Source: a virus
Taxonomy: Duplodnaviria; Heunggongvirae; Uroviricota; Caudoviricetes
Reading direction: 5' to 3' (one strand)
DNA length: 64,000 bases
Virus record (IMG/VR): IMGVR_UViG_3300033233_000007
The position numbers and the translations under genes were made by a program. This document shows positions 29,659 through 50,764 of this stretch, one piece after another. The notes under the pieces were generated by a model. It was not told where the DNA came from. It searched no databases and was given only the letters and a program-made list of their open reading frames with translations. Numbering within the stretch: the first letter of the stretch is position 1; every line of letters begins with the position of its first letter.

Positions 29659-29695
29659 TGCTTGACTCTTTGCTTACAGATTGTACACTGTCGTT

Positions 29696-34993: not shown

Positions 34994-34995
34994 GT

Positions 34996-35071
34996 TGGTA
35001 TCCCCGCCCGGAGTCGCGCCGGGTTCTGCGCCTTCGGAGGGCGCCGTGTTTCTATCGTACACCACGGGGAC
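34996..35071 (-). tRNA. tRNA-Arg(CCG)
   Basis: Hand-folded cloverleaf. Acceptor GUCCCCG...CGGGGAU-A-CCA, anticodon loop CUCCGAA. Confidence 0.55.
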
Positions 35072-35125
35072 GCTCTTAAAGAAAACGGCCGTTTCCTTTA
35101 AGAGCGTTTCGAGCTTTCAAAGAGC

Positions 35126-35201
35126 GTTTGAAAAATGGTATCCCCGCGTGGACTCGGACCACGACTTCCGCCTTCGTAGGGCGGCGCTCTGTCCAATTGA
35201 G
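35126..35201 (-). tRNA. tRNA-Arg(ACG)
   Basis: Canonical cloverleaf. D-arm GCUCAAUUGGACAGAGC, anticodon loop CUACGAA, CCA encoded. Confidence 0.75.
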
Positions 35202-35232
35202 CTACGGGGACATCGTACTGTCAAAGAGCGAA

Positions 35233-35308
35233 TGGAACCCTCGGCGGGAGTTGCACCCGCATGATCCCGTTTAGGAAACGGGTGCCTCTTCTTTTCGGCC
35301 ATGAGGGC
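35233..35308 (-). tRNA. tRNA-Arg(CCU) (weak; overlaps the 3' end of the HNH ORF)
   Basis: Acceptor has one mismatch. Anticodon arm CCCGU-UUCCUAA-ACGGG, T-arm GCGGG-UGCAACU-CCCGC. Confidence 0.35.
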
Positions 35309-35897
35309 CATGGTTTCCAAAGAACGTACCTCCGGCGGCCCAGTTCCCAAACAGTCCAAGTTTTCGTGCTGCACGCATTCCGCCAACTACTTTAAGCCAC
35401 GCCTTGTACGGCATATCGCGCCGTGTCCAATTGCATCTGATGCAAGCGGGAACGACGTTGTCGCGGACGTGGCCCTTGGTATTGTCGATGCGATCAAGTG
35501 AAATCTTCATGTCTGATGGCGTTGCCCCACAATAAACGCATCCGCGTGAGATTGAGTCGCGCACAAAATCTCTGGTCAAGTCGAACAGAAGTCCTCGTTT
35601 TCTGTCTTCATCTCTAGCATCCTTCATTATGAGGAAGTCGCGATTTATGCCGAGACGTCTCCATCTCCTGAGTTTGGCTTTGTACTTAGCTTGTTTCCGG
35701 GTATAGGCTACCGGCGACGTTCGCCGCTTCCCCCGTAAGGTGTTGTCGCACGCCTTACATCGTGTTCGAGGCCACCGTTTTCCGTTCACAATTCGCTCGT
35801 AGAACATGTCTACTGGCTTGGGCCTCTTACACAACGTACAGCGTTTATGGTCGGACATAGTTCCGACCATAGTAGTGAACGGTGGTGGGGACTTCAA
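35271..35897 (-). CDS. HNH homing endonuclease inserted in the tRNA array
   Basis: HNH core CVYCG...ISLDRIDNTKGHVRDNVVPACIRCN. Start probably MVGTMSDHK. Confidence 0.7.
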   Translation of the reverse strand: MKSPPPFTTMVGTMSDHKRCTLCKRPKPVDMFYERIVNGKRWPRTRCKACDNTLRGKRRTSPVAYTRKQAKYKAKLRRWRRLGINRDFLIMKDARDEDRKRGLLFDLTRDFVRDSISRGCVYCGATPSDMKISLDRIDNTKGHVRDNVVPACIRCNWTRRDMPYKAWLKVVGGMRAARKLGLFGNWAAGGTFFGNHGPHGRKEEAPVS

Positions 35898-35919
35898 GGA
35901 ATTTGACCTTGAAGTCCCC
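35887..35919. repeat. 13-bp-stem hairpin GGGGACTTCAAGG-aatttga-CCTTGAAGTCCCC
   Basis: Direct reading. It lies between tRNA-Pro(CGG) and the HNH start. Confidence 0.8.
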
Positions 35920-35920
35920 G

Positions 35921-35994
35921 TCGGAGTCTCCGGACGTGCGCCGGGCCTATGCCTGTTCCCGAAACAGGTGGGGCGCTATCTCCCCATGACTCCG
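35921..35994 (-). tRNA. tRNA-Pro(CGG) (non-canonical T-loop)
   Basis: Acceptor CGGAGUC/GACUCCG, D-stem GGGG/CCCC, anticodon loop UUCGGGA. Confidence 0.45.
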
Positions 35995-36003
35995 GTCAAA
36001 GAA

Positions 36004-36074
36004 TCGGCCCGCCGGGATTCGCACCCGGATCAAGCTCTTATAAAGAGCCCGTTCTACTGTTGAACTACGAGCCG
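36004..36074 (-). tRNA. tRNA, anticodon UAU (Ile-type)
   Basis: Hand-folded cloverleaf. D-arm GUUCAACAGUAGAAC, anticodon loop UUUAUAA, T-arm CCGGG-UGCGAAU-CCCGG. Confidence 0.5.
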
Positions 36075-36075
36075 A

Positions 36076-36151
36076 TGGTCAGGGCGGCGGGACTCGCACC
36101 CGCGGTCTCCACGTCCCAAGCGTGGCGCGTTGGCTGCTACGCTACGCCCTG
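36076..36151 (-). tRNA. tRNA-Pro(UGG)
   Basis: Full cloverleaf. Anticodon arm CCACG-CUUGGGA-CGUGG, CCA encoded. Confidence 0.7.
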
Positions 36152-36152
36152 A

Positions 36153-36239
36153 TGGTGCGCTTGAGAGGATTTGCACCTCCACGAGTTTTACCTCACCGGC
36201 CCCTCAAGCCGGCGCGTCTGCTGGTTCCGCCACAGGCGC
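36153..36239 (-). tRNA. tRNA-Leu(GAG) (class II, long variable arm)
   Basis: Anticodon arm CCGGC-UUGAGGG-GCCGG with a 14-nt variable arm. CCA encoded. Confidence 0.6.
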
Positions 36240-36244
36240 GAAAT

Positions 36245-36330
36245 TGGTGGGCCCGAGAGGGTTTGCACCTCTACGCTTATTAGGCACCGGCTTCTGAGAC
36301 CGGCGTGTCTGCTAATTCCACCACGGGCCC
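36245..36330 (-). tRNA. tRNA-Leu(CAG) (class II)
   Basis: Anticodon loop CUCAGAA with a long variable arm. Acceptor GGGCCCG/CGGGCCC. Confidence 0.6.
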
Positions 36331-36331
36331 G

Positions 36332-36405
36332 TGCCCTCGACAGGATTCGCACCTGCATGCCGACGCTTTTGAGGCGTCGAGGTCTTCTAGTTGCCTCACG
36401 AGGGC
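36332..36405 (-). tRNA. tRNA, anticodon CAA (Leu-type anticodon but class I structure)
   Basis: Acceptor GCCCUCG/CGAGGGC is perfect. Anticodon arm GACGC-CUCAAAA-GCGUC, T-arm GCAGG-UGCGAAU-CCUGU. Confidence 0.4.
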
Positions 36406-36441
36406 GTGAGAATCTGTTTCTCAAAGAACGATCCGACTCCA

Positions 36442-36516
36442 TGGTGGCCCCGCTGGGACTCGCACCCAGGTCTCCTGCTTAAGAGGCAGGCCGTCTAGCT
36501 GCTGACATACGAGGCC
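36442..36516 (-). tRNA. tRNA-Lys(CUU)
   Basis: Anticodon arm CCUGC-CUCUUAA-GCAGG, T-arm CUGGG-UGCGAGU-CCCAG. CCA encoded. Confidence 0.65.
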
Positions 36517-36520
36517 GTCA

Positions 36521-36595
36521 TGGGGTCGGCGGGAATCGAACCCGCGTGAAGCTCGGTTAAAAGCCGAGTGCAAAGCCAGCGTTTGCTACGACCCC
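36521..36595 (-). tRNA. tRNA-Lys(UUU)
   Basis: Acceptor GGGGUCG/CGACCCC. Anticodon arm CUCGG-CUUUUAA-CCGAG, T-loop UUCGAUU. Confidence 0.6.
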
Positions 36596-36636
36596 TTGGA
36601 TTTGCCGTCGCGTTTCAAGCGACACCTCCTGAAAAA

Positions 36637-36710
36637 TGGCAGCCCGCCGCGGATTCGCACCGCGATCCTGACTTTGAAAAAGTCATATCCTGCTCTTAGA
36701 CGAGCGGGCC
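36637..36710 (-). tRNA. tRNA-Glu(UUC)
   Basis: Anticodon arm UGACU-UUUUCAA-AGUCA, T-arm CGCGG-UGCGAAU-CCGCG. CCA encoded. Confidence 0.6.
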
Positions 36711-36866
36711 ATCAGTGGGCGTAGCGGGGGAGCATCTTGCGCATACTCATCGGGAACCTGACCCTACTCTGGGCGGGTCTTTGCCAGCTAACCGCTTACC
36801 CTCGGGAGGCTTGGCCCGATCCCTTTGCGCCAGTGCTGGCAGCCCCCGCGCTTCGCCCACTAAAAT
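36711..36866 (-). ncRNA. about 150-nt structured non-tRNA element closed by long-range helices (GTGGGCG/CGCCCAC and GGGGG/CCCCC)
   Basis: No ORF and no cloverleaf could be built. Complementary termini at 36714-36735 and 36842-36862. Strand is assumed from the surrounding tRNAs. Confidence 0.3.
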
Positions 36867-36941
36867 TGGTACCCCGAAGGAGAGTCGAACTCCCGTTTTC
36901 GCCTTGAGAGGGCGGTGTCCTGGCCGCTAGACGACCGGGGC
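36867..36941 (-). tRNA. tRNA-Glu(CUC)
   Basis: Anticodon arm CCGCC-CUCUCAA-GGCGA, T-arm GGGAG-UUCGACU-CUCCU. CCA encoded. Confidence 0.6.
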
Positions 36942-36942
36942 A

Positions 36943-37017
36943 TGGAACCCACGGAGGGAATTGCACCCTCATGACCGATTTAGAGGATCGGCGTCCTGTC
37001 TGTTGAACGACGTGGGC
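36943..37017 (-). tRNA. tRNA-Arg(UCU) (C33 in the loop)
   Basis: Anticodon arm CCGAU-CCUCUAA-AUCGG, D-stem GUUC/GGAC. CCA encoded. Confidence 0.5.
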
Positions 37018-37018
37018 A

Positions 37019-37097
37019 TGGCTCCGGCGGCAGGAGTCGGACCTGCGACTGCCCGCTTAACAGGCGGGTACCTCAAACCGACAGAGGCATCACCGGA
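37019..37097 (-). tRNA. tRNA-Asn(GUU)
   Basis: Anticodon arm CCCGC-CUGUUAA-GCGGG, T-arm GCAGG-UCCGACU-CCUGC, with a long D-loop. Confidence 0.55.
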
Positions 37098-37098
37098 G

Positions 37099-37172
37099 TG
37101 GAGCCGCCGACCCGAATTGCACGGGCATCTGAACTTTACGAAAGTTCTGTTCTGCTGTTGAACTACAGCGGC
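37099..37172 (-). tRNA. tRNA-Thr(CGU)
   Basis: Anticodon arm GAACU-UUCGUAA-AGUUC, D-arm GUUCAACAGCAGAAC. CCA encoded. Confidence 0.6.
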
Positions 37173-37173
37173 A

Positions 37174-37250
37174 TGGAGGCCGCGGCGTGACTTCCACACG
37201 CTACATCCGCCTTTGCAGGGCGGCGCTTCGTATACTTTGGCTTCGCGGCC
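37174..37250 (-). tRNA. tRNA-Cys(GCA) (weak D-arm)
   Basis: Acceptor GGCCGCG/CGCGGCC. Anticodon arm CCGCC-CUGCAAA-GGCGG. Confidence 0.5.
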
Positions 37251-37271
37251 GTGAATCGGCAGATGGATGGA

Positions 37272-37363
37272 TGGCGGAAGGTGAGGGAGTTGCACCCCCG
37301 TCGCCCTTGCGAGGCGCACGGTTTAGCGGACCGTCCCGGCGAACTGTCATCCGGCTACCTTCC
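37272..37363 (-). tRNA. tRNA-Ser(GCU) (class II)
   Basis: Acceptor GGAAGGU/ACCUUCC. Anticodon arm ACGGU-CCGCUAA-ACCGU with an 18-nt variable arm. Confidence 0.6.
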
Positions 37364-37364
37364 G

Positions 37365-37450
37365 TGGGGGAGGGCAACGGAATTGCACCGTCACGCGAGA
37401 TGCGCGGTCCAGTTTTCGAGACTGGTTGGGCACTGCGCCCACTGCCCTCC
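37365..37450 (-). tRNA. tRNA-Ser(CGA) (class II)
   Basis: Anticodon arm CCAGU-CUCGAAA-ACUGG with a 16-nt variable arm. D-stem UGGG/CCCA. Confidence 0.6.
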
Positions 37451-37458
37451 GTGAAATT

Positions 37459-37532
37459 TGGTCCCGGCGGGTGGAGTCTCACCACCGTTTCATCTTCATG
37501 AGGGATGCGTCTTGATCTTAGACCACACCGGG
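37459..37532 (-). tRNA. tRNA-Met(CAU), elongator-type
   Basis: Anticodon loop CUCAUGA, T-arm GGUGG-UGAGACU-CCACC. CCA encoded. Confidence 0.55.
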
Positions 37533-37533
37533 A

Positions 37534-37608
37534 TGGAGCCGCCGGTCCGAGTTGCACGGACATGAACCTGTTTACAGGACAGGGGCCTTGCTGTTAGGCG
37601 ACGGCGGC
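37534..37608 (-). tRNA. tRNA-Thr(UGU)
   Basis: Acceptor GCCGCCG perfect. Anticodon arm CCUGU-CCUGUAA-ACAGG, T-arm GUCCG-UGCAACU-CGGAC. Confidence 0.6.
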
Positions 37609-37645
37609 AAAAAAAACGCCGGTGTTCTACTATTGAACTACACCG
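37609..37645 (-). terminator. truncated tRNA 5' half (acceptor + D-arm) forming a hairpin followed by T8; possible intrinsic terminator
   Basis: Minus strand reads CGGUGUAGUUCAAUAGUAGAACACCGGCG then UUUUUUUU. No anticodon arm, T-arm or 3' acceptor strand is present. Confidence 0.35.
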
Positions 37646-37766
37646 TGGAAAACGGTTGACCGGACTACGCGCGCTACGCCGGGTCGTTTTCTCGTGCGGA
37701 GGGTACTGCCCCCTCGTCTCCGGCTCTCACGGCGTCGTTTAATCCGACGCCATGAGAGAAGGAGAA

Positions 37767-37840
37767 TGGGGCCGCCAGCGGGTACTGCCCCCGCGCTTCG
37801 ATCTTACCAAGATCGCGGACTGCTTTTATCCTATGGCGGC
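37767..37840 (-). tRNA. tRNA-Thr(GGU) with atypical T-loop GGCAGUA
   Basis: Acceptor GCCGCCA/UGGCGGC. Anticodon arm CGAUC-UUGGUAA-GAUCG, T-arm GCGGG-GGCAGUA-CCCGC. CCA encoded. Confidence 0.4.
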
Positions 37841-37841
37841 A

Positions 37842-37916
37842 TGGTCCTCGCTGAGGGAATCGCACCCCCGTCCCGTGGGTGTAGGCCACGTGTTCTGGCT
37901 GCTGAACTAAGCGAGG
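37842..37916 (-). tRNA. tRNA-Val(UAC)
   Basis: Acceptor CCUCGCU perfect. Anticodon arm CGUGG-CCUACAC-CCACG, D-arm GUUCAGCAGCCAGAAC. Confidence 0.6.
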
Positions 37917-37917
37917 A

Positions 37918-37991
37918 TGGTCCTCGGCCGAGGAGTCGCGCCTCGGTTTCCAGCGTGTCATGCTGGCGTCCTCCTGTTGAACGAGCCGAGG
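37918..37991 (-). tRNA. tRNA-Val(GAC)
   Basis: Anticodon arm CCAGC-AUGACAC-GCUGG, T-arm CGAGG-CGCGACU-CCUCG. Confidence 0.6.
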
Positions 37992-37992
37992 A

Positions 37993-38070
37993 TGGTCGGG
38001 GTGACAGGGCTTGCACCTGCGGCCTCCAGCGCCCCACGCTGGCGCTCATCACTATCTGAGCTACACCCCG
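37993..38070 (-). tRNA. tRNA-Pro(GGG)
   Basis: Acceptor CGGGGUG perfect. D-arm GCUC...GAGC, anticodon arm CCAGC-GUGGGGC-GCUGG. Confidence 0.6.
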
Positions 38071-38071
38071 A

Positions 38072-38145
38072 TGGGGTGATCGCCCGGATTTGCACCGGGA
38101 CTGACAGGGCCACGGCCTGCCGTGCTTCTGTTACACCACGATCAC
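38072..38145 (-). tRNA. tRNA-His(GUG)
   Basis: Acceptor GUGAUCG perfect. Anticodon arm GCAGG-CCGUGGC-CCUGU, T-arm CCCGG-UGCAAAU-CCGGG. Confidence 0.5.
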
Positions 38146-38151
38146 GAAGAT

Positions 38152-38226
38152 TGGTCCGCCCGGTTGGAGTTGCACCAAACATCAGCCGCTTATCGGGCGG
38201 CCGTTCTACTGTTGAACTACGAGCGG
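38152..38226 (-). tRNA. tRNA-Ile(GAU)
   Basis: Anticodon arm GCCGC-CCGAUAA-GCGGC, D-arm GUUCAACAGUAGAAC. Confidence 0.55.
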
Positions 38227-38227
38227 A

Positions 38228-38301
38228 TGGACCGGCCAGCGGGTACTGCCCCCGCGCTTTCGCCTTGGCAAAGCGACAGACTTCTACTATCCGATGGCCG
38301 G
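38228..38301 (-). tRNA. tRNA-Gly(GCC) with atypical T-loop GGCAGUA
   Basis: Acceptor CCGGCCA/UGGCCGG. Anticodon arm UCGCU-UUGCCAA-GGCGA, T-arm GCGGG-GGCAGUA-CCCGC. Confidence 0.4.
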
Positions 38302-38302
38302 T

Positions 38303-38377
38303 TGGCTGGCCCGGAAGGATTCGCACCTTCACCGCGACGTTCAGAGCGTCGAATGCTGCGTGTTACACCACGAGCCA
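38303..38377 (-). tRNA. tRNA-Gln(CUG)
   Basis: Anticodon arm CGACG-CUCUGAA-CGUCG, T-arm GAAGG-UGCGAAU-CCUUC. Confidence 0.6.
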
Positions 38378-38378
38378 G

Positions 38379-38461
38379 TGGTGGGCGCGTACGGAATCGA
38401 ACCGCCTAGTCTTCGACAACGGGTTTACAACCCGCCTCCGATCCCACTCGGCAGCGCGCCC
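38379..38461 (-). tRNA. tRNA-Tyr(GUA) (class II)
   Basis: Acceptor GGGCGCG perfect. Anticodon arm GCGGG-UUGUAAA-CCCGU with a 12-nt variable arm. Confidence 0.55.
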
Positions 38462-39099
38462 TAGCGTGCTTTGTACGATCGATGCTTCTTTGAACGCTCG
38501 ACCATGCGCTCGACGTACCGGATCATTTTCCGCGGCGTGACGGCCGACGTGCGGTAGGCCCAGCGCCCTTCTGAAAGCGCCATGTGCCGCGTTGAGTGGT
38601 GCAGGTGGCAGACCCACTCGAGGTTCTTCGGCCTATTGTCGTCCTCGTTGCCGTTAATGTGATGGACCACAAGAAGGCTCGGGACTTTGATCTTGCAACT
38701 GACGCATCGGAGCTTTCGGCTGTTGTACTTGATCGCGCGGTTGCGAATGCTGGCGGTAGCCGCGCGCCCCTTGCCCCGGCCCCAGTTCCGCGGTCGCGCT
38801 ACGATGATGCCGCTGTCGAGCTTTTGCGCTTTGTGCCGGCACTCGCGGCTGCAGACGGGGGCGCCCTTGAGCGAATTTATGTAGCGCGGCGTGATTTCGA
38901 AGGGCTTGTCGCAGACCTCGCACCAGACGCGCATGCGCTTTCTGGAGAGTTTGTTACGGCATTCAAACGAACAGGCCTTTCGCTTCTTGTCGAACGCGGG
39001 GAAGACGAACTTTTCCTTACAGGCCCCGCAACGTCTCTCGACGCAGAGCCGCTTCTGGCCGTCGAAAGTCCGGGTCATGAACGGGCGCCGCCTGAGCAC
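38461..39099 (-). CDS. HNH endonuclease with N-terminal zinc fingers, inside the tRNA array
   Basis: HNH core VVHHINGNEDDNRPKNLEWVCHLHH, with multiple CxxC pairs. Confidence 0.65.
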   Translation of the reverse strand: MLRRRPFMTRTFDGQKRLCVERRCGACKEKFVFPAFDKKRKACSFECRNKLSRKRMRVWCEVCDKPFEITPRYINSLKGAPVCSRECRHKAQKLDSGIIVARPRNWGRGKGRAATASIRNRAIKYNSRKLRCVSCKIKVPSLLVVHHINGNEDDNRPKNLEWVCHLHHSTRHMALSEGRWAYRTSAVTPRKMIRYVERMVERSKKHRSYKAR

Positions 39100-39214
39100 G
39101 AGGGGATCGTACGCGGAAGTTAAGGGAAGTCAAGAGGATGGTGGACCCGCGGGGATGCGCGCCCCGATTTTCACGATGCCATCGTGATGTCCTCCTGGTT
39201 GGACGACGGGCCCA

Positions 39215-39288
39215 TGGTGGACGCGGAGGGAATCGCACCCTCATTTTCGCATTGCGAAAGCGACGGTCTCCTGTTGACCTACGCGCCC
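39215..39288 (-). tRNA. tRNA-Ala(CGC)
   Basis: Acceptor has the G3:U70 Ala identity pair. Anticodon loop UUCGCAA, T-arm GAGGG-UGCGAUU-CCCUC. Confidence 0.5.
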
Positions 39289-39289
39289 A

Positions 39290-39364
39290 TGGCCGGCGCG
39301 GCTGGTAACGCTCCAGCATCTCCTCCTCTTCAGGGAGGCGCTCAAACTTCTGAGCTACGCGCCG
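39290..39364 (-). tRNA. tRNA-Phe(GAA)
   Basis: Acceptor CGGCGCG perfect. D-arm GCUC...GAGC, anticodon arm CCUCC-CUGAAGA-GGAGG. Confidence 0.6.
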
Positions 39365-39372
39365 GTGAAAGA

Positions 39373-39446
39373 TGGTTCCGGGAGAAGGATTTACACCTTC
39401 GTCTTCTGATTCAAAGTCAGAAATCCTATTACTAGACGATCCCGGA
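39373..39446 (-). tRNA. tRNA-Gln(UUG)
   Basis: Anticodon arm UCUGA-CUUUGAA-UCAGA, T-arm GAAGG-UGUAAAU-CCUUC. Confidence 0.55.
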
Positions 39447-39994: not shown

Positions 39995-40275
39995 TCGGAC
40001 TTCCGTATGTTCTTTGGACTACGGAGGTCCGTCGCCCTCTTGCCGCGTGGCCGCGGGCTGGCGATTCAGACTACCGAAAATCGACGTGGCCACGGGCCGC
40101 GGTAAGCGCCGATAGCGTGCCGCGAGTCGCTTCTGGCAATCTTCTCGCCTATGGTCGCGTGTTCTCATAGCCGTATCGCTTAGACCCGCATGGCTAATGC
40201 GAGTTCGTGAGAATTATAAAACAGGACCGCCCCGAAGCAAGAAAAATCCGCCATAAGGGCGTCGGTACGTTTTCC

Positions 40276-40304
40276 TTGACTTGGACGCACTACACGGGTA
40301 CACT
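40276..40304 (+). promoter_or_regulatory. sigma70-like promoter TTGACT-N17-TACACT
   Basis: Direct reading. It lies 8 nt upstream of the GTG at 40312. Confidence 0.5.
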
Positions 40305-40311
40305 ATGAGCC

Positions 40312-40452
40312 GTGAAGATCGTCCTCCCGACCTTGAAGTGCGTGCGCTGCGGCCACGCGTGGTATCCCCGTCGGCCTGAGACGCCGCCCCGTTGTGCCGG
40401 CTGCAAAAGCCCCTACTGGGACAGGCCGAGGCGCACGGGAGCGAAATCATGA
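40312..40452 (+). CDS. zinc-ribbon mini-protein (46 aa; CxxC...CxxC), paralog of 42921..43055
   Basis: Protein VKIVLPTLKCVRCGHAWYPRRPETPPRCAGCKSPYWDRPRR. Its stop overlaps the next ATG (ATGA). Confidence 0.5.
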   Translation: MKIVLPTLKCVRCGHAWYPRRPETPPRCAGCKSPYWDRPRRTGAKS

Positions 40453-41087
40453 GACCCGGTCCGTACAGGCGGTCAATGACGTCGATACGGATGAGCCATC
40501 ACAGTTTTGTGAAGGAGCCTGTTTTCATGAGAAATCCTGATGACCCGCTGGACTATCCGAGCCTCCGTGACCTGATCGCAGCCGCGCAACTGGCCTCCCG
40601 CATCGGAGAGGATCATGACGTGGACTCGGCGCTGGTCGGCGGCGTTGCGCTTCAACTATACGGCTCTCCTCGGTTTACTCGAGATGCGGACCTCGTGGCC
40701 GGTGCGGCGCTGGGCGACCCGTCGCCAATGCTGAAGCGTAACATCTTGAGTTTTGGCGGAGTCGCCTACGACACGCCGATCGGAGTCGGCGTCGACTGGA
40801 TCACTCGATCCGACGAGTACGCGCAATTGTACGACGCCGTGCTTGACGCTTCCGTGTCGACGAAGCATGGAATCAAGATCGCGCGGCCGGAGTATCTTGT
40901 CGCGATGAAGATGGCTGCGTCGCGGCCAAAGGATTATGAGGACCTCATGTGGCTTTTGGGCGCTCCCGGACTCGTGGACGTGACGAAGGCGCGGGAGATC
41001 GTGCGCGCGTTTCTCGGTGGGCGGTACGCCGTCGATCAGTTCAACGCCTCTCTTGAAGAAGCGAAATGGCGGGCCGGAAAAACGTGA
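40449..41087 (+). CDS. nucleotidyltransferase (MNT/AbiEii-like)
   Basis: Motif VGGVALQLYGSPRFTRDADLV of the GG(x)A...R.T.DxD type. Translationally coupled to the zinc-ribbon ORF. Confidence 0.65.
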   Translation: MRPGPYRRSMTSIRMSHHSFVKEPVFMRNPDDPLDYPSLRDLIAAAQLASRIGEDHDVDSALVGGVALQLYGSPRFTRDADLVAGAALGDPSPMLKRNILSFGGVAYDTPIGVGVDWITRSDEYAQLYDAVLDASVSTKHGIKIARPEYLVAMKMAASRPKDYEDLMWLLGAPGLVDVTKAREIVRAFLGGRYAVDQFNASLEEAKWRAGKT

Positions 41088-41354
41088 GTCCGCTTGACAG
41101 CACGGTCCGCCCGTGTAGAATCCTCTCGTTCTTTTACGTTCTGTATCGAGTGCGAAAGGAAGCGCCTTCGGGCTTCGTGCCGCAGGCGCCGAGCTTTCGA
41201 ACTCCAGACCTTGCCCTTGGGCCGCGAGGCCGCGGGCGAAGAAAACGCCGGCATTCGGCGACGGTGTTGTGATCGATCCGGGAAGCCTTCGTTGTAACCG
41301 GCACGGCTTCCGCATCCCGCAACTTCGGACGCCAAAAGGAATTCGGAGGACAGG

Positions 41355-42827
41355 ATGCCTTCATCCATTTCCCTCTCTGCGCTTCTCGAATACGACAAAG
41401 TCGCTTTCGACAAGACGCACGTCACGCACATGCTCGTGAATCTCGAGGGCGCCAAGCATGCCGCGTCGAATCGTAAGCCCCTCGCTATTTCGGTCTCTAT
41501 CGACTGCTCCAGCAGCATGGCCGGCCAGAAGATCGACTACGCGAAGCTCTCGCTCCAGAAACTCATCGAGCATCTGACGGCCGAGGACACGCTATCGATC
41601 GTCGGCTTCTCGAACTCCGTCTGGACGGTTCTTGCGCCCACGCGCATGGCGTCCGACGCCAAGGATTCGGCTAAGGCCAAGGTCCAGGGGCTTCGCTACC
41701 TGAGTTCGACCAACCTCTCCGGCGCGACCGTCGAGGCGTACGGCCATCTGCGGTCGGGCCGCGAAATCGCGGTCAAGGACGCGCTGGCTCGGGCCTTCCT
41801 CTTCACCGACGGCCTTCCGACGTCGGGGGAGACCCATCATGATCGGCTCATCGAGATCGCCGGCACGAAGCCCGAGGGCGCCGGCCTCACGGCCTTCGGC
41901 TACGGGACGGACCACGATCCCGAGCTTTTGCTGTCCATGGCCAAAAAAGGCGGAGGCAACTTCTACTTCGTCAAGACCCCCGACGAATGCCCGAGCTTCT
42001 TCGGCCGCGAACTGGGCGGTCTGCTCTCGTGTGTCGCCCAGGGCGTGAAGGTCAAGATCAAGGCCGCCGCCGGCGTCAAAATTCTCGAAGTCCTCAACGA
42101 CTTCGACGTGGACGCCAACAAAGAGCAGACCGAAGCGACGATCACCGTCGACGACGTCTACTCGGAGGAGACGCGGCGCGTGCTCGTGAAGCTCGAGCTT
42201 CCCAAGGTCTCCAAAGCCGTGGCTGCTCGGCCTTCGAAGGTTTGCGACGTCGAGATCGAGTTCCACGACCTGCGGATCAACGAGCCGAAGTCCGAGTCCG
42301 TCAAAGTCAAGATCGAGTACGTCAAGTCCGGCAACGAGCAGGCCAAGCCCCACAAGGAGGTCGAAGAGCAGATCGCGCTCCTTGTGGCCGCCAAGGCCCA
42401 TGAGGAGGCCCGCAAATTCGCCGACGCGGGTAACTTCGCCGGCGCCCAGAGCGTGCTTCGGAGCGCGGCGCTCGTCTGCAGTGCCGTCGGCACGCCCTTG
42501 ACCAAGGCTGTCGAGCACGAGATCAAAACGGGCGGGCTCATCATGGTCCAAGACGCCCAGGCCTACGCCCATGGCGGCGTGCAGTACGTCGTTGGAACGG
42601 CCGGGGGCTACAAAGCCGGTCGCGGTTACACGTCCGGCTCCGCTCAGCTTTTCGACACGGAGCGGCAGAGCGCGACAGCCGCGTCGTTCGGCGGTAGTAC
42701 CGTGCCGGCTGATCCGGCGCACATGCTCGGTCAGCCGATCGTGCATCCCGCACCGGTTGCCGTGCCGCCGAAGTTCAGCGCCGCCCTGCCGAAGGGGCCG
42801 AGTAAGCGCCGAAAGAACAGGCGCTAG
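41355..42827 (+). CDS. von Willebrand factor A (vWA) domain protein
   Basis: MIDAS motif ISVSIDCSSSM (DxSxS), then ...SIVGFSNS...FLFTDG. GGAGGACAGG RBS. Confidence 0.75.
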   Translation: MPSSISLSALLEYDKVAFDKTHVTHMLVNLEGAKHAASNRKPLAISVSIDCSSSMAGQKIDYAKLSLQKLIEHLTAEDTLSIVGFSNSVWTVLAPTRMASDAKDSAKAKVQGLRYLSSTNLSGATVEAYGHLRSGREIAVKDALARAFLFTDGLPTSGETHHDRLIEIAGTKPEGAGLTAFGYGTDHDPELLLSMAKKGGGNFYFVKTPDECPSFFGRELGGLLSCVAQGVKVKIKAAAGVKILEVLNDFDVDANKEQTEATITVDDVYSEETRRVLVKLELPKVSKAVAARPSKVCDVEIEFHDLRINEPKSESVKVKIEYVKSGNEQAKPHKEVEEQIALLVAAKAHEEARKFADAGNFAGAQSVLRSAALVCSAVGTPLTKAVEHEIKTGGLIMVQDAQAYAHGGVQYVVGTAGGYKAGRGYTSGSAQLFDTERQSATAASFGGSTVPADPAHMLGQPIVHPAPVAVPPKFSAALPKGPSKRRKNRR

Positions 42828-43626: not shown

Positions 43627-44772
43627 ATGCCCGACATCAGCCCCCACATCACGGTCAACAAGGACGACGTTCATAGCTTCGTCATCGATTCGATCCTGCT
43701 TGAGAATGTACGCACGGAAAAGCTCGTCTTCGCTGCGCACTGGAACGCGTCCATGAAAAACGGCGGCGACAAATTCCATCAAGCGTGTGAAATTGCGCGC
43801 AAGATCGGAACTCCGCGTTTCGTCGGGACGCACGGCAATTACGCGGACGGGCTCGTCCTGCGCGACCAGTCCGTCGTGAAGCTCTGGATCGGAAAGAAGC
43901 TCGACGTTGAAGTTTGGGCCAAGACGCAGGAAGATGCTACGAAAGAGGTACAGGCAATCCGAAAGATTGTCGAGCCCTATCTCATCACCCCTGAAAACGA
44001 GTCCGGGATCAGCGTGACCTTCTGGAACTCGAACACGAAGGGAGATGTCAAGCAGAACGAGCGCATCATCGCGTGTCCTTCATGGCAGGAAATCCGCGAG
44101 AACTACGGCTCTTCCGTCCAACCGGACATCGAGTCTCTGGTGGCAATGAAAAAGCCGTGGGAGGCCGGGAAGATCATTTTCTGGTCTGGGCCGCCGGGCA
44201 GCGGGAAAACTTTTGGAATTCGTTCTCTAATTCGTGAGTGGCACGGCGTTGTTGAACCGAACTACATCATGGACCCGGAGACGTTCTTCAGCGACGCGCA
44301 GTATATGAGCGAGGCCGTGATGACGACGAGCAATAAGTTTGACGAGGATGGGGATAGCAAGCCGTCGACGGCCGGCAAACTCTTCATCATCGAGGACATG
44401 CCCGATCTCATCCTGACGAAAACTCGCCTGACCCGTTGCGCCGAAATGGCCCGACTCCTGAACCTCTCCGACGGCTTTATCGGCCAGGGTTTTAACGCCA
44501 TCTTCCTCCTGACGACGAACGAGGACGTCCACGACGTCGACCCTGCGTTTCTCCGCGATGGCCGCATCCTTCAGCAGACAGCGTTCACGAAGTTCAACAT
44601 GTCGGCAGCGAAGGCGTGGCTCGGCAATCGCGGGATCGCCGCTGACCGCGCCGACGCCGCCATCTGCGGAGAGATGACGCTGGCCGAGCTTTACGCGGTG
44701 CTGCGGGGCAAGAGGCCCAAGTCCCATGTGAAAGACCGCAAGGTCGGCTTTGCCGTGGAGAAATCGTCATGA
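43627..44772 (+). CDS. AAA+ ATPase
   Basis: Walker A GPPGSGKT, Walker B LFIIEDMPD and sensor LLTTNE. Confidence 0.75.
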   Translation: MPDISPHITVNKDDVHSFVIDSILLENVRTEKLVFAAHWNASMKNGGDKFHQACEIARKIGTPRFVGTHGNYADGLVLRDQSVVKLWIGKKLDVEVWAKTQEDATKEVQAIRKIVEPYLITPENESGISVTFWNSNTKGDVKQNERIIACPSWQEIRENYGSSVQPDIESLVAMKKPWEAGKIIFWSGPPGSGKTFGIRSLIREWHGVVEPNYIMDPETFFSDAQYMSEAVMTTSNKFDEDGDSKPSTAGKLFIIEDMPDLILTKTRLTRCAEMARLLNLSDGFIGQGFNAIFLLTTNEDVHDVDPAFLRDGRILQQTAFTKFNMSAAKAWLGNRGIAADRADAAICGEMTLAELYAVLRGKRPKSHVKDRKVGFAVEKSS

Positions 44773-44782
44773 ACCGCTTGGA

Positions 44783-45916
44783 CTAAAGCCCCGCGGCTTG
44801 TTTCTGAACATGAGGACTCGAAACCATAGGCTCCATGACGAGAGCCCTCTCCGGGCAGGCTTGCCTCCTGGAGATCGTCTGCGCGGCATTGAAGTCCGCG
44901 GCCAGACGATAGCCGCAGACGGCGCACGTAAAGTGCGCCCCGCTTCGAGAAGATTTGTCCACGACGCCACACTTCGAGCACTCACGGCTCGTGTTCTTGG
45001 CGGCCACGGACACGACTTCGACACCGGCCAAAGCCGCCTTGTAACGGATCATCGTCTCAAGCTCGGAAAAGGCCCATGCGTTGATCCTCCGATTCCACGT
45101 CTTGCTGAACCGCTTGAGGCGATCCCGAATGCCCTTGAGGTCCTCCAGTTTGATGACGGCCCTCTTTTTAGTCGCCTCGTCAACGATGGCCTTGCTGATC
45201 CGATGGTTCTCGTTCCGCATCCAACGATGCTCCCTTCCCGACAGCCGTTTCAAGAGGCGCCTAGCGCTTCTTGTGCCTATGGACTGGAGCTTCGCCCTGC
45301 GGGACGCGAACCTCTCACGGACGTGCATGACCTTTCGACCGGAATGGAATTTCCCCGCGGACGTGACGGCAATGTTATAGACGCCCCTATCGACGCCGAT
45401 GGCGCAGATGGGATGCGACCGCTGGCCTGGATCGTCTTCGACGACGATATGGATGTACCACTTGCGATCTCCATAGACAAGCTTGGCGGCGGTGGGTCTC
45501 TTCCCGCGAAGATTGTCGCGCTGGTACGTTCCGAGGACGAGAGGAACGTGGACGCGGCCGTTGACCGTCGTCAGGGATACCGCCTCTTCGTTCTCACGGT
45601 AGGTGAAGATTCGCTCATCGTAATCGACGCTCGTGGGCCTGAACTTCTTGACGGTCCTGTCCTTGCGTTTCACGGCTTTGATCGCCCATGCGACGCGGGC
45701 GATGGCGCGAATGGCGAGATTAGCGGAAAGGTTGAACTGTTTGCGGATATCGTGGTAGACGAGGTGCTGAAGTTTGACCTTGTTCGAAGTTTTCTCACGG
45801 ACAGCGACCTCAAGGATGACGTCGCACGCGGCGGCAAACTTCGTGAGCGTGTCCTTGAGGGCGTCGGAGACAGTGGGGGCGGGGTCCATTTTGCAGATGA
45901 TTGTTCGCTGTTGCAT
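44783..45916 (-). CDS. tnpB: TnpB (IS1341/IS605-family OrfB), second copy, distinct from 29696..30898
   Basis: N-terminal MQQRTIICKMDPAPT and a C-terminal CSKCG...CAVCGYRLAADFNAAQTI. Confidence 0.75.
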   Translation of the reverse strand: MQQRTIICKMDPAPTVSDALKDTLTKFAAACDVILEVAVREKTSNKVKLQHLVYHDIRKQFNLSANLAIRAIARVAWAIKAVKRKDRTVKKFRPTSVDYDERIFTYRENEEAVSLTTVNGRVHVPLVLGTYQRDNLRGKRPTAAKLVYGDRKWYIHIVVEDDPGQRSHPICAIGVDRGVYNIAVTSAGKFHSGRKVMHVRERFASRRAKLQSIGTRSARRLLKRLSGREHRWMRNENHRISKAIVDEATKKRAVIKLEDLKGIRDRLKRFSKTWNRRINAWAFSELETMIRYKAALAGVEVVSVAAKNTSRECSKCGVVDKSSRSGAHFTCAVCGYRLAADFNAAQTISRRQACPERALVMEPMVSSPHVQKQAAGL

Positions 45917-46243
45917 GACGAATATAATATCACATACGTCTTGAATGTCAAGGAGGGCGACGCTTCTTCCGTTCGGGCTGAAGCCCGGCGGCATCCGCGT
46001 CGCAAGAATTGGTGAAGTTTGTCAGACTCGTTCTGAGCCCATGGGGCGTCGAACTGGCGGGCGCTCTGTGCCTTCTGGCCGCGGGCTTCGAATTCATGGG
46101 ATCGTGGGCTTCGCCAGATCAGTTCACCCGCGCTATGAACTTGGCGGGCTATGGATCGATGCTAATTCTGACCGCATACGTTGAGCGGGACCTGCTCAAA
46201 GGTGTAAACTCCCGTTCGTGCGAAACCGAAAAAGGAGAGGCAT

Positions 46244-47221: not shown

Positions 47222-49915
47222 GTGGAGGTCGTAACCTTGAAAAGAAACGTACAAGCGACCGCCGAACTCATGATGGGCCGTGAAGCCGACAGCGGCCGTA
47301 CGTTCGCGCTGCCCGTGGATGCACTCGTGCAGACGTTCGCGTTCATGGGCATCCGCGGCTCGGGCAAGTGCGTGGAAGCTTCGGAAAAGATTTTGTTGTC
47401 CGATGGTAGAGTCGAACCTGCTCATACTTTGATCGGCCGAACTTTCTCAATCTTGGGCATTGGGGATAAAGGTGAGTTCGTACCGAGGATTGCACACGCT
47501 GCGGACAATGGCATGCGCGGCACTTATCTCGTCAGAACAAGAAGCGGGAGGGAGATTCTTAGGACGGCTGAACATCCCCTCTGGGCGGCGGAAGTTGTCA
47601 CCGAATATACTCGACCAAAGATAAAGAAGGTTGGATGGGTTGCGGTACAGAACTTGGTCGCCTGCGGATGGGGCGAGTCAAGAGATCGAAAGATGGTCCA
47701 TGCCGTTGCTGTTCCCACCTCTATTCCGATCAATGGGAATCGTCCTCGCAATGATGATGAAGTGAAGCTGGCGGCTTACTTGGTAGGAGACGGGGGCACG
47801 ACTTGCTCTGTCAGTTTTACGCATCTTCCGGGACCCGCGCTGGATGAGTTTGTGGAAATTGCGCATCGTCTTGGCGGAAAGGTTCATTGCTCCAAGTCCG
47901 CGTCAAAAGCAGTACAGCTTAGAGTCTCTGGAGCTTCGAATCTGGATGGCAGAGGGAGCAAGGGATCGAATCCAGTTCTTGAGCTTGTCAAGTCATGGGG
48001 ATTGTTTGGGGTTAAGTCCAAGCACAAGTCATTCCCGAGTTGGGTGTGGGAGTTGCCGGATCGCCAAATTGCCTTATTCTTGAACCGTCTGCTGTCTTGT
48101 GACGGGTGGGCGTTAACGACTACGCATGGCAGGTCGGATATTGGCATCTGTTCTGCATCCTATGCTTTGATCCGGGATGTTGAACTGGCCATGCTCAGAC
48201 TTGGCATTCCGGGATCGATTAACCGCAAGACCGTTAAAGGGGTGTGGAAGACGACTCCTGGTGACTACATCGCCTATACGTGGAATATTGGGAGTCGAGA
48301 GGCTCTTGCGACATTTGTCGCAAGAGTTGGAATCTTTGGCAAGGAACAACAAGTTGCGAAAGCCGTACCTCATAACGGCGGCGCTGGATGGAAGCGGACA
48401 TGGACAGCCGTTGATGACATGCCTGGAATGCGATGGGATTTCGTTGAAAGGGTCCAGTGCATTGGTGAACGCCCGACTGTTTCGATTTCTGTGCCTGGAG
48501 ATGAGCGTTTCGTAACAACCTTTCTTGAGCACAACACCACGGCCGTCGCCGTTCTTGCCGAGGAGTTCTCCAAAGCCGGTCTGCCGTGGATCATGCTCGA
48601 TCCTGTCGGCGTCGGCTGGGGCCTCCGTGCGGGCAAAGACGGAAAGTCCGGCGGCGGTTTCCCCGTCGTCGTCTTCGGCGGCTCGCACGGCGATCTGCCG
48701 CTCGACAAAGACGGTGGTCGGAAGGTTGCCGAGGCTCTGATCGAATCGAATGTCTGCGCCGTCATCGACCTGTCCAAAGAGAGCAAGAAAACGTGGCGCC
48801 GCTTCCTCACCGATTTTTGTCTCGCACTTATGGACCTGAACCCGCAGACTCCGCGGCACCTCTTTATAGAGGAAGCGGCTGAGTTTATTCCGCAACGAAC
48901 AAAGGTCGCCGTGACGGCCGAGTGCAAGGAAGCCGTGGAGCGGCTCGTGCGGCTTGGCCGAAATCAAGGCTACGGCTGCTCGATCATCACGCAGCGGCCG
49001 GCGACGGTCGACAAAGATGTACTTTCACAATGCGAAAATTTGGTCGTTATGCGTACGGTCGGCAAGCACGACCGTAGGGCTCTCATGGACTGGCTGGAAC
49101 CGAAGTTTTCGGAGCAGGGGCTTGACGAAAAGGGCGTCAGGGCCGAAGGCACGAAACTCGTCAATACCCTCGCGGCCTTCGACAGCGGGGTCGCGTACTT
49201 CTGGAGCCCGCATTGGCTGAAGCAGTTCAAGAAAGTCAGGATTCGCGACCGGGCGACGTTCCATCCGGGGCAGACACGGTCCGTCGGGAAGTCCATCGGC
49301 CCCGTGGCACTCTCTGACGTTACTGAGTTCGTGGAAAGGGTCCGTCGCCAGCTTTCGGCTTCGAAGCCGGCGAGCGTTCCGCAGAGCTATACCCCGAGAA
49401 AAATCGAATCGCTTAAGAAGGAAATCAAGTCTATCGAGACCTCGAGTGGCTCCGCCATCGTGCTCGATCCCGTCACGTCACGTCAAGCTGCTGAGGCTAT
49501 CCGAGACGTCGCCCGAGAGGCCGACGAACTTCGTCAGCGCGTTGGCGAGCTTCAGAAGCAGATCGCCGAGGAGAAGGCCCGTCGTGCCGACGCCGAGAAC
49601 CGTCTGGCCGCGGTCCGCAAGTTCATGGAACCGCAGTACGAGACGATGAAGAAGCTGTTCGAGAAGCTCGGGACTCCGGGCAGTAACGGCGCTGCCGACT
49701 CGTCGGTCTACGCGCCGTGGCTCGAAAAGGCCGGCAAGCGCGGCTCGAAGCGGCTTTTGGAGATCATGATCGCCCGCGGCGAAGTGACGCGCACGCAGCT
49801 TGCGACGCTCGCGGGCATCGCGCAGTCGGGTACGTTCCGAAACTATCTCAGTTGGCTCAAGAGCAACGGCCTCGTGGAGGTTCAGGGCGAGCAGGTTCGC
49901 CTTCGTCCCATTTAG
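47222..49915 (+). CDS. HerA/FtsK-like P-loop ATPase (possible DNA-translocating/packaging ATPase) carrying an intein; C-terminal coiled coil and winged helix
   Basis: Extein Walker A GIRGSGK|TT is reconstituted after intein removal. Walker B LFIEEAAE and HerA-like IITQRP. Confidence 0.7.
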   Translation: MEVVTLKRNVQATAELMMGREADSGRTFALPVDALVQTFAFMGIRGSGKCVEASEKILLSDGRVEPAHTLIGRTFSILGIGDKGEFVPRIAHAADNGMRGTYLVRTRSGREILRTAEHPLWAAEVVTEYTRPKIKKVGWVAVQNLVACGWGESRDRKMVHAVAVPTSIPINGNRPRNDDEVKLAAYLVGDGGTTCSVSFTHLPGPALDEFVEIAHRLGGKVHCSKSASKAVQLRVSGASNLDGRGSKGSNPVLELVKSWGLFGVKSKHKSFPSWVWELPDRQIALFLNRLLSCDGWALTTTHGRSDIGICSASYALIRDVELAMLRLGIPGSINRKTVKGVWKTTPGDYIAYTWNIGSREALATFVARVGIFGKEQQVAKAVPHNGGAGWKRTWTAVDDMPGMRWDFVERVQCIGERPTVSISVPGDERFVTTFLEHNTTAVAVLAEEFSKAGLPWIMLDPVGVGWGLRAGKDGKSGGGFPVVVFGGSHGDLPLDKDGGRKVAEALIESNVCAVIDLSKESKKTWRRFLTDFCLALMDLNPQTPRHLFIEEAAEFIPQRTKVAVTAECKEAVERLVRLGRNQGYGCSIITQRPATVDKDVLSQCENLVVMRTVGKHDRRALMDWLEPKFSEQGLDEKGVRAEGTKLVNTLAAFDSGVAYFWSPHWLKQFKKVRIRDRATFHPGQTRSVGKSIGPVALSDVTEFVERVRRQLSASKPASVPQSYTPRKIESLKKEIKSIETSSGSAIVLDPVTSRQAAEAIRDVAREADELRQRVGELQKQIAEEKARRADAENRLAAVRKFMEPQYETMKKLFEKLGTPGSNGAADSSVYAPWLEKAGKRGSKRLLEIMIARGEVTRTQLATLAGIAQSGTFRNYLSWLKSNGLVEVQGEQVRLRPI
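47369..48535 (+). other. intein (389 aa) with a LAGLIDADG homing endonuclease domain, inserted in the P-loop
   Basis: Starts at Cys after GSGK (CVEASEKILLSDG). LAGLIDADG-like blocks LAAYLVGDGG and LFLNRLLSCDGW. Ends FVTTFLEHN, followed by Thr. Confidence 0.7.
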
Positions 49916-49942
49916 GTCGGGCTCTACTTTTTGGAGAGGCAC

Positions 49943-50764
49943 ATGAAGAAGTCCGTATTTTTCGCTGTCGCCGGTCTCATCGTCTTGGTACTCATCCTCA
50001 TCGTCAGCTTCGCCAGTTGCACGACCGTGCCGGCGGGCCACGTCGGCGTTGTGACGAACTTCGGCGACGTGCAAGGGACTGTCCTGCCCGCGGGCCTGCA
50101 TGTCGTCGCGTTCTGGAAGCACGTCCAGACGCTGTCGATCAGGACTCAGGAAAAGAGCGAGACGGCCGACGTCCCGACGAAAGAGGGGCTGACCGTCCAT
50201 CTCGACGCGACGCTCCTTTTTGCGCTCAAGGCCGACAAGGCGGCGGAAATCTACCGCACCGTCGGCGAGAACTACATCGACGTCGTCGTGACGCCGCAGT
50301 TCCGGTCGGCCATGCGCGGCATCACGGTCGATTATCAGGCGCAGGACCTTTACACGGCCAATCGCGCCGAGATCGAGCAGAAGCTGCAGACGATGGTTCA
50401 CGACATGCTCGAACCCCGCGGCATCATCTGCGAAAAGGTGCTGCTGCGGTCGGTTGTGCTACCGGACCTCGTCAAGACGGCGATTGAGCAGAAGCTTGCT
50501 GCGGACCAGGACGCGCAGCGCATGGAGTACGTCGTCAAGCGCGAGGAACAGGAAGCCAAGCGCCGGGCCGTCGAAGCCGGAGGCATCGCCGCCGCGCAGA
50601 AGATCATCCAGGCGACGCTTGACGATAACTACCTGCGGTACCTGTGGCTCGAGGCGCTGAAGGTCGCGGCGGCGAACCCGTCGACCGTGATCTACGTTCC
50701 CACGGACAGTAGCGGCTTCCCCATGTTCATGCCGCTTGAGGGGAAGAGGGAGCCGAAGAAATGA
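49943..50764 (+). CDS. SPFH/band-7 (prohibitin/HflC-like) membrane protein
   Basis: N-terminal TM segment, then the SPFH segment PAGHVGVVTNFGDVQ.... Confidence 0.7.
   Translation: MKKSVFFAVAGLIVLVLILIVSFASCTTVPAGHVGVVTNFGDVQGTVLPAGLHVVAFWKHVQTLSIRTQEKSETADVPTKEGLTVHLDATLLFALKADKAAEIYRTVGENYIDVVVTPQFRSAMRGITVDYQAQDLYTANRAEIEQKLQTMVHDMLEPRGIICEKVLLRSVVLPDLVKTAIEQKLAADQDAQRMEYVVKREEQEAKRRAVEAGGIAAAQKIIQATLDDNYLRYLWLEALKVAAANPSTVIYVPTDSSGFPMFMPLEGKREPKK

Follow-up and report, generated by a model that had tools for sequence, protein, structure and literature searches.

The 64,000-nucleotide stretch of DNA analysed here (the window; IMG/VR virus record IMGVR_UViG_3300033233_000007) carries, on the plus strand at 47222-49915, the gene of a HerA-like P-loop ATPase that is interrupted in the middle of its Walker A motif. 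The interrupting element, 47369-48535, is very probably a mobile class-1 intein, that is, a Hint-type splicing domain enclosing a two-motif LAGLIDADG homing endonuclease, lodged between the Walker A lysine and threonine of this phage ATPase. An earlier reading of the same DNA, made from its letters and translations (hereafter the sequence-only reading), had drawn the element within these limits and had predicted that its removal restores GSGKTT; both statements proved exact to the base. As inteins go, the case is an ordinary one, Lys|Thr insertions in P-loops being the commonest kind: it adds a new host and a new insertion allele to a known type of element.

The precursor reading frame runs unbroken through 897 codons and a stop. 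The element takes up 1167 nucleotides of it, or 389 amino acids, the codon of Cys50 opening it at 47369 and that of Asn438 closing it at 48535, and the precursor reads ...GIRGSGK|CVEASEK...FLEHN|TTAVAV... across the two junctions. Translation confirms the junction residues proposed at the outset, namely a cysteine in first position, His-Asn in last, and a threonine immediately after. In-silico removal of the element leaves a 508-residue protein in which GSGKTTAVAV is restored; the spliced product reads GIRGSGKTTAVAV around its P-loop, and the tryptic peptide spanning the ligated extein junction would be GSGKTTAVAVLAEEFSK, with a missed cleavage. The N-extein (47222-47368, plus strand) ends with the Walker A sequence GIRGSGK (47348-47368), whose lysine, Lys49, is residue -1 of the intein; Gly48 and Lys49 are invariant in 111 sequences of the family. 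The C-extein (48536-49915, plus strand), delimited by the junction, the empty site described below and the family alignment, begins with the threonine codon 48536-48538, and this residue doubles as the +1 splicing nucleophile and the threonine of Walker A GKT. The start codon is the sole uncertainty of the gene model. GTG at 47222 gives the longest reading; a GGAGG sequence at 47224-47228, 8 nucleotides before an in-frame TTG at 47237, favours the latter as the start; and the public gene call (P0001, identical to the precursor from M17 onward) begins at the ATG at 47270. The choice among these three codons leaves the intein unaffected.

The most direct evidence that the element is an insertion comes from a close relative that lacks it. 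The nearest intein-free homologue (P0002) is encoded on L001, a 10.8-kb contig that is syntenic with the window at about 85% nucleotide identity, with an AAA/DUF5925 gene upstream and an SPFH gene downstream of the ATPase. In BLASTN comparisons, L001 aligns to window positions 47267-47368 and then passes straight to 48532-48731, again at about 85% identity, which sets the breakpoints at 47368 and 48532-48536. The L001 junction, GGATCGGGCAAG|ACCACGGCC, encodes GSGK|TT and is thus an exact empty site. The stretch around it reads GCATTCGCGGATCGGGCAAGACCACGGCCGTTGCCGTCTT, and 35 of its 40 flanking bases agree with the spliced sequence of the window. The contiguous P-loop that the sequence-only reading had called for in homologues is found not only in L001 but also in 110 full-length intein-free relatives (43-59% identity), whose consensus is GIRGSGKT. 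IMG/VR viral contigs contain 147 relatives, and the 80 best of these are all free of an insert at the P-loop. Mini-inteins were considered for the two longest matches, L059 and L024, and rejected: the extra length consists of duplicated winged-helix domains and linkers.

The composition of the element is also that of a newcomer. Its G+C content is 52.0%, as against 61.3% for the exteins, and the difference is larger at third codon positions (GC3), where the intein stands at 0.517, the exteins at 0.752 and the median of the window at 0.764; the lowest value for any other window gene of at least 200 codons is 0.624. Since a low GC3 is combined with an empty site in a close relative, the intein was in all likelihood gained recently.

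The conserved blocks of inteins can be followed along the element, always on the plus strand. Block A (CVEASEKILLSDG, 47369-47407) starts with the Cys1 nucleophile (47369-47371); it is supported by alignment and by the NCBIfam model TIGR01445 (intein_Nterm), which scores 27.1 bits for a cut-off of 24.5. In block B (RTAEHPLW, 47561-47584), the sequence Thr66-Ala-Glu-His69 provides the Thr66-x-x-His69 signature and falls opposite the TxxH when DnaB-type and terminase-type relatives are aligned. The two LAGLIDADG-like blocks noticed in the sequence-only reading lie at 47765-47797 (KLAAYLVGDGG, with Asp141 kept in YLVGD141GG), in a region matched by models of intein-containing DnaB, RecA and GyrA, and at 48071-48109 (ALFLNRLLSCDGW, with Asp245 kept in LLSCD245GW), within a match to Pfam LAGLIDADG_3 (residues 233-321, expectation value (E) 4.5e-10) that scores 40.1 bits for a cut-off of 22.5. 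Local NCBIfam matches of the element are to the intein-containing DnaB (E 1.8e-27), RecA and GyrA models. Block F (PTVSISVPG, 48473-48499) was placed by the family alignment and profile, the family consensus being TVAIxVP, and block G (RFVTTFLEHN, 48506-48535), which ends in His388-Asn389, by the score of the family profile on the last 50 residues.

How this family profile was obtained deserves some explanation. A word-indexed homologue search with the intein returned only nine distant DnaB-type matches, of at most 33% identity. A profile of six DnaB-type relatives, from which the window was excluded, gave 191.6 bits to the first ~360 residues of the element and 41 bits to the first 110 residues scored alone, and a profile including DnaB-type relatives detects solved inteins, namely those of DnaB, VMA and RecA, and PI-PkoII. 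From the word-indexed search came the early idea of an orphan intein with a degenerate block F, which was overturned by an exhaustive HMMER search. The latter retrieved 1909 proteins at E <= 0.001, 106 of them at E <= 1e-30, the best of which align with the intein from end to end at 44-46% identity. Seventy-five full-length relatives were extracted and made into a profile, the window being left out. All 75 begin with Cys and end with His-Asn; the residue that follows is Thr in 42 and Ser in 33; and in 57 the insertion lies directly after "GK". The C-terminus that the relatives have in common, ...TVAIxVP....TFLTTFVEHN, is matched by that of the window, PTVSISVPGDERFVTTFLEHN. The 75-member profile scores the whole element at 385 bits and its last 50 residues at 50.4 bits, while 200 shuffled versions reach at most 1.8. 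Blocks F and G, for which the sequence-only reading had sought support and which the general models barely see, are therefore supported by the family to which the element belongs.

Judged by these alignments and by the in-silico spliced hosts, the intein family is large, and its members sit mostly after "GK" in P-loops, chiefly those of phage terminase large subunits. Indeed, the spliced hosts P0130, P0132 and P0134 match phrog_2, the terminase large subunit, and P0136, P0139 and P0205 match Pfam terminase domains. For one member, P0192, the insertion point is QPGK|S and the host is no ATPase but a virion structural protein (phrog_1645). When the hosts of the 150 best cluster representatives were compared with a profile of the HerA-like family, the protein of the window alone matched. 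Some hosts of the family (proteins P0130-P0278), e.g. P0133 and P0144, contain two inteins apiece. No second copy of the intein was found when the six-frame translations of the window and of all 84 related loci were scanned with the family profile.

Several observations weigh against a functional intein, and they bear mainly on its C-terminal part. The Pfam model Intein_splicing (PF14890) scores only 14.2 bits, below its cut-off of 35.8, the C-terminal splicing region being weak; the C-terminal intein models of NCBIfam do not match the element; phmmer finds no match among PDB sequences, whether it is given the whole intein or only the last 49 residues; and the profile of six DnaB-type relatives gives only 4.8 bits to the last 60 residues. 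In block F, position 4 is Ser in the window where canonical class-1 inteins have Asp, and the nearby His is replaced by Glu, so that the canonical Asp is lacking. A single-sequence AlphaFold2 (AF2) model of the intein has a mean predicted local distance difference test score (pLDDT) of 35 and is uninformative as to a Hint fold. Finally, the ATPase copy of the sister contig (P0002, L001 3452-4717) shows an in-frame deletion of 60 amino acids between two "KVA" repeats (equivalent to window 48732-48901), which removes Walker B. This deletion may mean that the ATPase gene is dispensable in that phage, or that L001 is mis-assembled. If the ATPase is dispensable in the lineage, the argument that splicing must work is weakened accordingly.

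These facts could be taken together as meaning that the element is a decayed intein, no longer able to splice, and that the HerA-like gene, inactivated by the insertion, is a pseudogene which the phage carries passively: the block-F Asp is missing, general models recognise the C-terminal splicing region poorly, and the loss of Walker B in the sister copy suggests a dispensable gene. We consider this unlikely. The frame of 897 codons is intact; every junction residue is in place (Cys1, TxxH, His-Asn and Thr+1), as are both Asp residues of the endonuclease; and a GC3 so foreign speaks for an intein that came in recently and would have had little time to decay. The block-F Asp is common among inteins without being obligatory. 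At position 4 of block F the family consensus is Ala, Ser or Gly, and the unusual block of the window is thus the rule in a family of at least 75 members that has kept its junction residues without exception, which implies a functional family. The block without Asp is a variant trait of the whole family and not a lesion. In the exteins, all 25 family-invariant residues are kept, and the ratio of non-synonymous to synonymous substitution rates (dN/dS) relative to L001 is 0.16 over the whole and falls to 0.08 in the ATPase core. Because the extein gene is under purifying selection, the intein should have to splice.

On the reading preferred here, a mobile intein able to splice, the following course of events can be proposed. 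From anatomy, homology, the empty site, composition, host fold and selection on the exteins, all computed directly, we infer that the 897-residue precursor would fold and that Cys1 would attack the carbonyl of Lys49 in an N-S acyl shift. The acyl group would then move onto the hydroxyl of Thr+1, Asn389 would cyclise with the assistance of His388, freeing the intein, and an O-N shift would produce a normal peptide bond, thereby regenerating GSGKTT and the 508-residue ATPase. Before splicing the P-loop would be physically split, and the precursor should therefore not bind ATP. As for mobility, the endonuclease would be expected to cut intein-less alleles, such as that of L001, during co-infection, and repair of the break would copy the intein into them (homing). 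The presence of the intein in one of two close relatives and its absence from the other, as well as the foreign GC3, are indirect evidence for such homing. The ATPase gene itself probably gained the intein by an ectopic jump out of another P-loop gene, a terminase-associated intein being the likely source.

The sequence-only reading had described the host as a HerA/FtsK-like ATPase. On this point the Pfam domains, the fold comparison and the profile search of PDB sequences agree. The spliced protein matches HerA_C (29.1 bits, cut-off 22) and DUF87 (23.7 bits, cut-off 23.2), and clears these cut-offs solely after the intein has been removed in silico. An AF2 model of the spliced host, built with an alignment of 111 sequences, has a pLDDT of 90. 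Compared with the PDB by Foldseek, it has the Sulfolobus HerA protein as its top match (4d2i, E 1.7e-14), followed by HerA-NurA, by the anti-phage complexes SIR2-HerA and DUF4297-HerA and, lower down, by DndH and the FtsK-like coupling protein TcpA. The profile search of PDB sequences returned HerA-type chains only, and among the viral proteins of BFVD a Klebsiella phage HerA-like protein matches best. Two of the motifs that the sequence-only reading had picked out were located in the C-extein, on the plus strand: the Walker B sequence LFIEEAAE (48860-48883), whose residues E161, E162 and E165 are conserved in the family, and the HerA-type segment IITQRPATVDKD (48983-49018), which begins with IITQRP (48983-49000) and is the best-conserved stretch that the host has in common with solved HerA proteins.

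With the hexameric HerA DNA translocases that are its best fold matches (E 1e-14 to 1e-10) and best profile matches, i.e. 4d2i, HerA-NurA, SIR2-HerA and DUF4297-HerA, the host has in common a RecA-like core with Walker A, Walker B and TQRP. It differs from them in being phage-encoded, in having no HAS barrel, and in its C-terminal part. In the AF2 model, the approximately 40 residues that precede the P-loop form two short strands and there is no N-terminal HAS barrel; moreover, the NCBIfam HerA equivalogs give about 44 bits for cut-offs of 800-970. For these two reasons, the protein is better called HerA-like than a HerA orthologue. The model also agrees with the long coiled coil and winged helix announced for the C-terminus. 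The first appears as a long single helix of 67 residues (extein residues 361-427; 49469-49669, plus strand), possibly a coiled coil, with weak matches to coiled-coil families. The second is a winged helix-turn-helix (extein residues 438-505; 49700-49903, plus strand) with a pLDDT of about 96, a succession of helices and strands H-H-b-H-H-b-b, and a weak match to Sso10a_fam. Some relatives have a tandem pair of C-terminal winged helices with long linkers (L059 10001-11833, L024 10001-11752). As modelled, then, the host is a HerA-clade motor of the FtsK-HerA superfamily, devoid of a HAS barrel and ending in a long helix and a winged helix. The family to which it belongs comprises more than 450 homologues and is represented on 147 viral contigs.

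What such a motor does in the phage was approached through its neighbours. No NurA, SIR2 or DUF4297 partner was seen beside the gene in the window, in L001 or in L002. Nor do these appear among the 25 commonest Pfam families of the large neighbours of the gene in 43 viral loci, the small neighbours not having been surveyed systematically, and BLAST clustering of the ATPase neighbours in 79 viral loci revealed no conserved partner gene. In the Pfam census of 100 large neighbours in the 43 loci, the commonest families were DNA methylases, which come first, ParB_N, portals, DnaB, RecT and Terminase_6N; the associations with methylases, ParB_N and portals are loose ones. The PADLOC profile "mad8", of the MADS defence system, spans the ATPase core (extein residues 38-297, profile positions 29-311 of 314, E 1.4e-10). 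Together with the methylase neighbours, this match hints at a possible methylation-linked role of the ATPase family; the literature on the MADS system offered no explanation for it. The fold and the neighbourhood taken together suggest that the host is most likely a DNA-directed translocase or helicase acting in early DNA metabolism and not in packaging, and the best guess for the winged helix is that it guides the ATPase in this role.

The sequence-only reading had left the choice between a packaging and a translocation motor. Of the two, translocation is a reasonable expectation from the HerA fold, while packaging fared badly. A packaging motor would call to mind the FtsK/HerA-type ATPases of PRD1-like and other membrane-containing viruses, and the intein would then gate packaging. 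The spliced protein does match phrog_2666, "terminase large subunit" (E 3.6e-19), its BFVD fold matches include the packaging ATPases of Haloarcula virus PH1, of a corticovirus and of giant viruses, and the nearest relatives of the intein reside in terminase large subunits. Nevertheless, this role is quite improbable. The phrog_2666 match covers the ATPase core alone, no Pfam terminase domain is matched, and the C-terminus consists of a helix and a winged helix, with no RNase H-like or other nuclease; a terminase large subunit was rejected as the identity of the host on these grounds. A relative annotated as "hera helicase" is encoded by a complete 43-kb Caudoviricetes genome, MW202482, that has its own terminase large subunit, portal and HK97-type head and major capsid genes. 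Portal and Terminase_6N genes occur near relatives in other viral loci as well, and in the prophage L002 the relative is accompanied by RecT, VRR-NUC and ParB genes, with the portal gene downstream of it. A packaging ATPase of the PRD1 P9/A32-like type was rejected too, the relatives residing in Caudoviricetes genomes equipped with a terminase large subunit, a portal and an HK97-type capsid. In the window the gene stands among early and DNA-metabolism genes, and its product comes closest, in fold and in sequence, to the HerA translocases of cells and of defence systems. No structural genes were found in the window, which amounts to only about half of a contig at least 126 kb long.

LAGLIDADG endonucleases also occur as free-standing proteins and within group I introns, and the endonuclease domain is the sole Pfam match of the element above cut-off. 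That the insert does not undergo protein splicing at all, being instead a permanent domain, an endonuclease fused in frame, or an intron-encoded endonuclease removed at the RNA level, is nonetheless extremely unlikely: the N-terminal splicing region clears a curated NCBIfam cut-off, the termini fit intein chemistry exactly and are common to all 75 relatives, the frame is continuous and without a stop codon and needs no intron, Rfam detects neither an intron nor another RNA family in this segment, its only matches in the window being tRNAs outside it, and 389 residues permanently set between the Walker A lysine and threonine would abolish nucleotide binding in a protein whose exteins are under purifying selection. 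A group I intron was rejected in view of the continuous frame and the lack of an Rfam intron, and a bacterial intein-like (BIL) domain was also considered and rejected.

An intein in this position is in good company. Insertion between the Walker A lysine and a nucleophilic threonine is the "classic" P-loop insertion described for the mycobacteriophage TerL1-a intein, and is common in bacterial and archaeal proteins (PMC5050341); equivalent insertion sites are DnaB site b, MCM site a and RFC-S site a (PMC4760082). The intein of the window enters at the identical GK|T point, uses the Walker A threonine as its +1 nucleophile, and resembles these inteins in its class-1 chemistry, its LAGLIDADG endonuclease and its residence in phage or mobilome genes. 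The difference lies in the host, which is HerA-like and not a terminase, DnaB, MCM or RFC. Neither "HerA" nor "FtsK" occurs in the main text of the 2015 intein survey (PMC4760082), and no title or abstract describing an intein in HerA was found in the literature.

The public databases do, all the same, hold HerA/DUF853-type ATPases with P-loop inteins: P0287, P0314, P0319 (a "DUF853 family protein" of Candidatus Diapherotrites) and P0332, of which P0314, P0319 and P0332 are archaeal. These inteins lie in the same type of host and at the same site (GMGK|C...HN|S and GARGSGK|C...HN|S). They belong to the canonical DnaB-like lineage, with an Asp in block F (YDLSVP or FDISVP), whereas the intein of the window is terminase-associated, and their hosts are only 24-29% identical to the protein of the window. 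Since the intein lineages are different and the hosts distantly related, the GK| site has been invaded independently. The ATPase family of the window (42-72% extein identity) contains further inteins with LAGLIDADG-like domains, also in catalytic motifs. In P0044, P0051, P0053 and P0108 they are found after Walker B (EEAPEF|C...GN|CPQRTK), and in P0058 and P0279 at DKDVL|S...HN|SQ. These other sites are occupied by inteins unrelated in sequence to that of the window. The clustering of inteins in ATPase motifs is a familiar pattern.

The window and L001 form an exact pair of occupied and empty alleles. Together with the foreign GC3, they offer a clear-cut case from nature of an intein newly gained by a large uncultivated phage. 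The location of the nearest relatives in terminase P-loops supports the movement of P-loop inteins between non-orthologous ATPase genes in the phage gene pool. One may go further and suggest, tentatively, that this intein lineage is adapted, in its endonuclease and in its splicing domain, to the "GK|T/S" P-loop context itself and not to one host gene, and could hop between non-orthologous phage genes. This possibility, which we rate as doubtful but worth stating, is consistent with the finding of most members in terminase P-loops, of the window copy in a HerA-like ATPase and of P0192 at QPGK|S in a structural protein of the virion. If it is correct, the window and L001 would represent a natural before-and-after pair for an ectopic intein jump. 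A family without the block-F Asp that has kept its junction residues in 75 of 75 members is also a usable set for the study of block F variation.

Inteins tend to mark conserved, functionally important sites. The three insertion sites thus flag a widespread and unstudied phage HerA-like ATPase, made up of a motor, a long helix and a winged helix, as worth characterising. If the ATPase family has indeed been invaded at three catalytic motifs, and at the P-loop at least twice, this would single it out as an important phage motor that lends itself to experiment.

The window seems to derive from a large uncultivated phage. The public contig that carries P0001 is 125,798 bp (125.8 kb) long, and the window covers about half of it. 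Window genes with phage PHROG matches include those of a Pol III alpha-like polymerase, a primase-helicase, two helicases and an SbcD-like nuclease. Around the ATPase gene, an AAA+ ATPase with a DUF5925 domain (43627-44772, plus strand) lies upstream and an SPFH/Band 7 gene (49931-50764, plus strand) directly downstream, an order that is kept in L001. Two IS605-type TnpB/OrfB genes (OrfB_IS605 plus a Cas12f1-like TNB domain) are present in the window, at 29681-30898 on the plus strand and at 44783-45994 on the minus strand. The latter is just upstream of the ATPase gene, within a 1.27-kb block (44758-46032) that L001 lacks. Because this block is missing from L001, it represents a second recent gain of a mobile element within 3 kb of the intein. 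A 2.5-kb block at 40252-42746, with an AbiEii-like nucleotidyltransferase (40392-41087) and a von Willebrand factor A protein (41355-42827), is also missing from L001, whose alignment jumps from position 403 to position 420. ARAGORN detects a dense array of 28 tRNA genes on the minus strand (34919-39446), which fits a large phage genome, and Rfam adds one tRNA (39142-39213) that is not in the ARAGORN list. The polymerase of the window is approximately 30% identical to those of known phages. Its gene (4717-7827, minus strand) encodes a Pol III alpha-type enzyme with PHP, polymerase, fingers and HHH domains, followed by a C-terminal uracil-DNA glycosylase domain (residues 885-1016).

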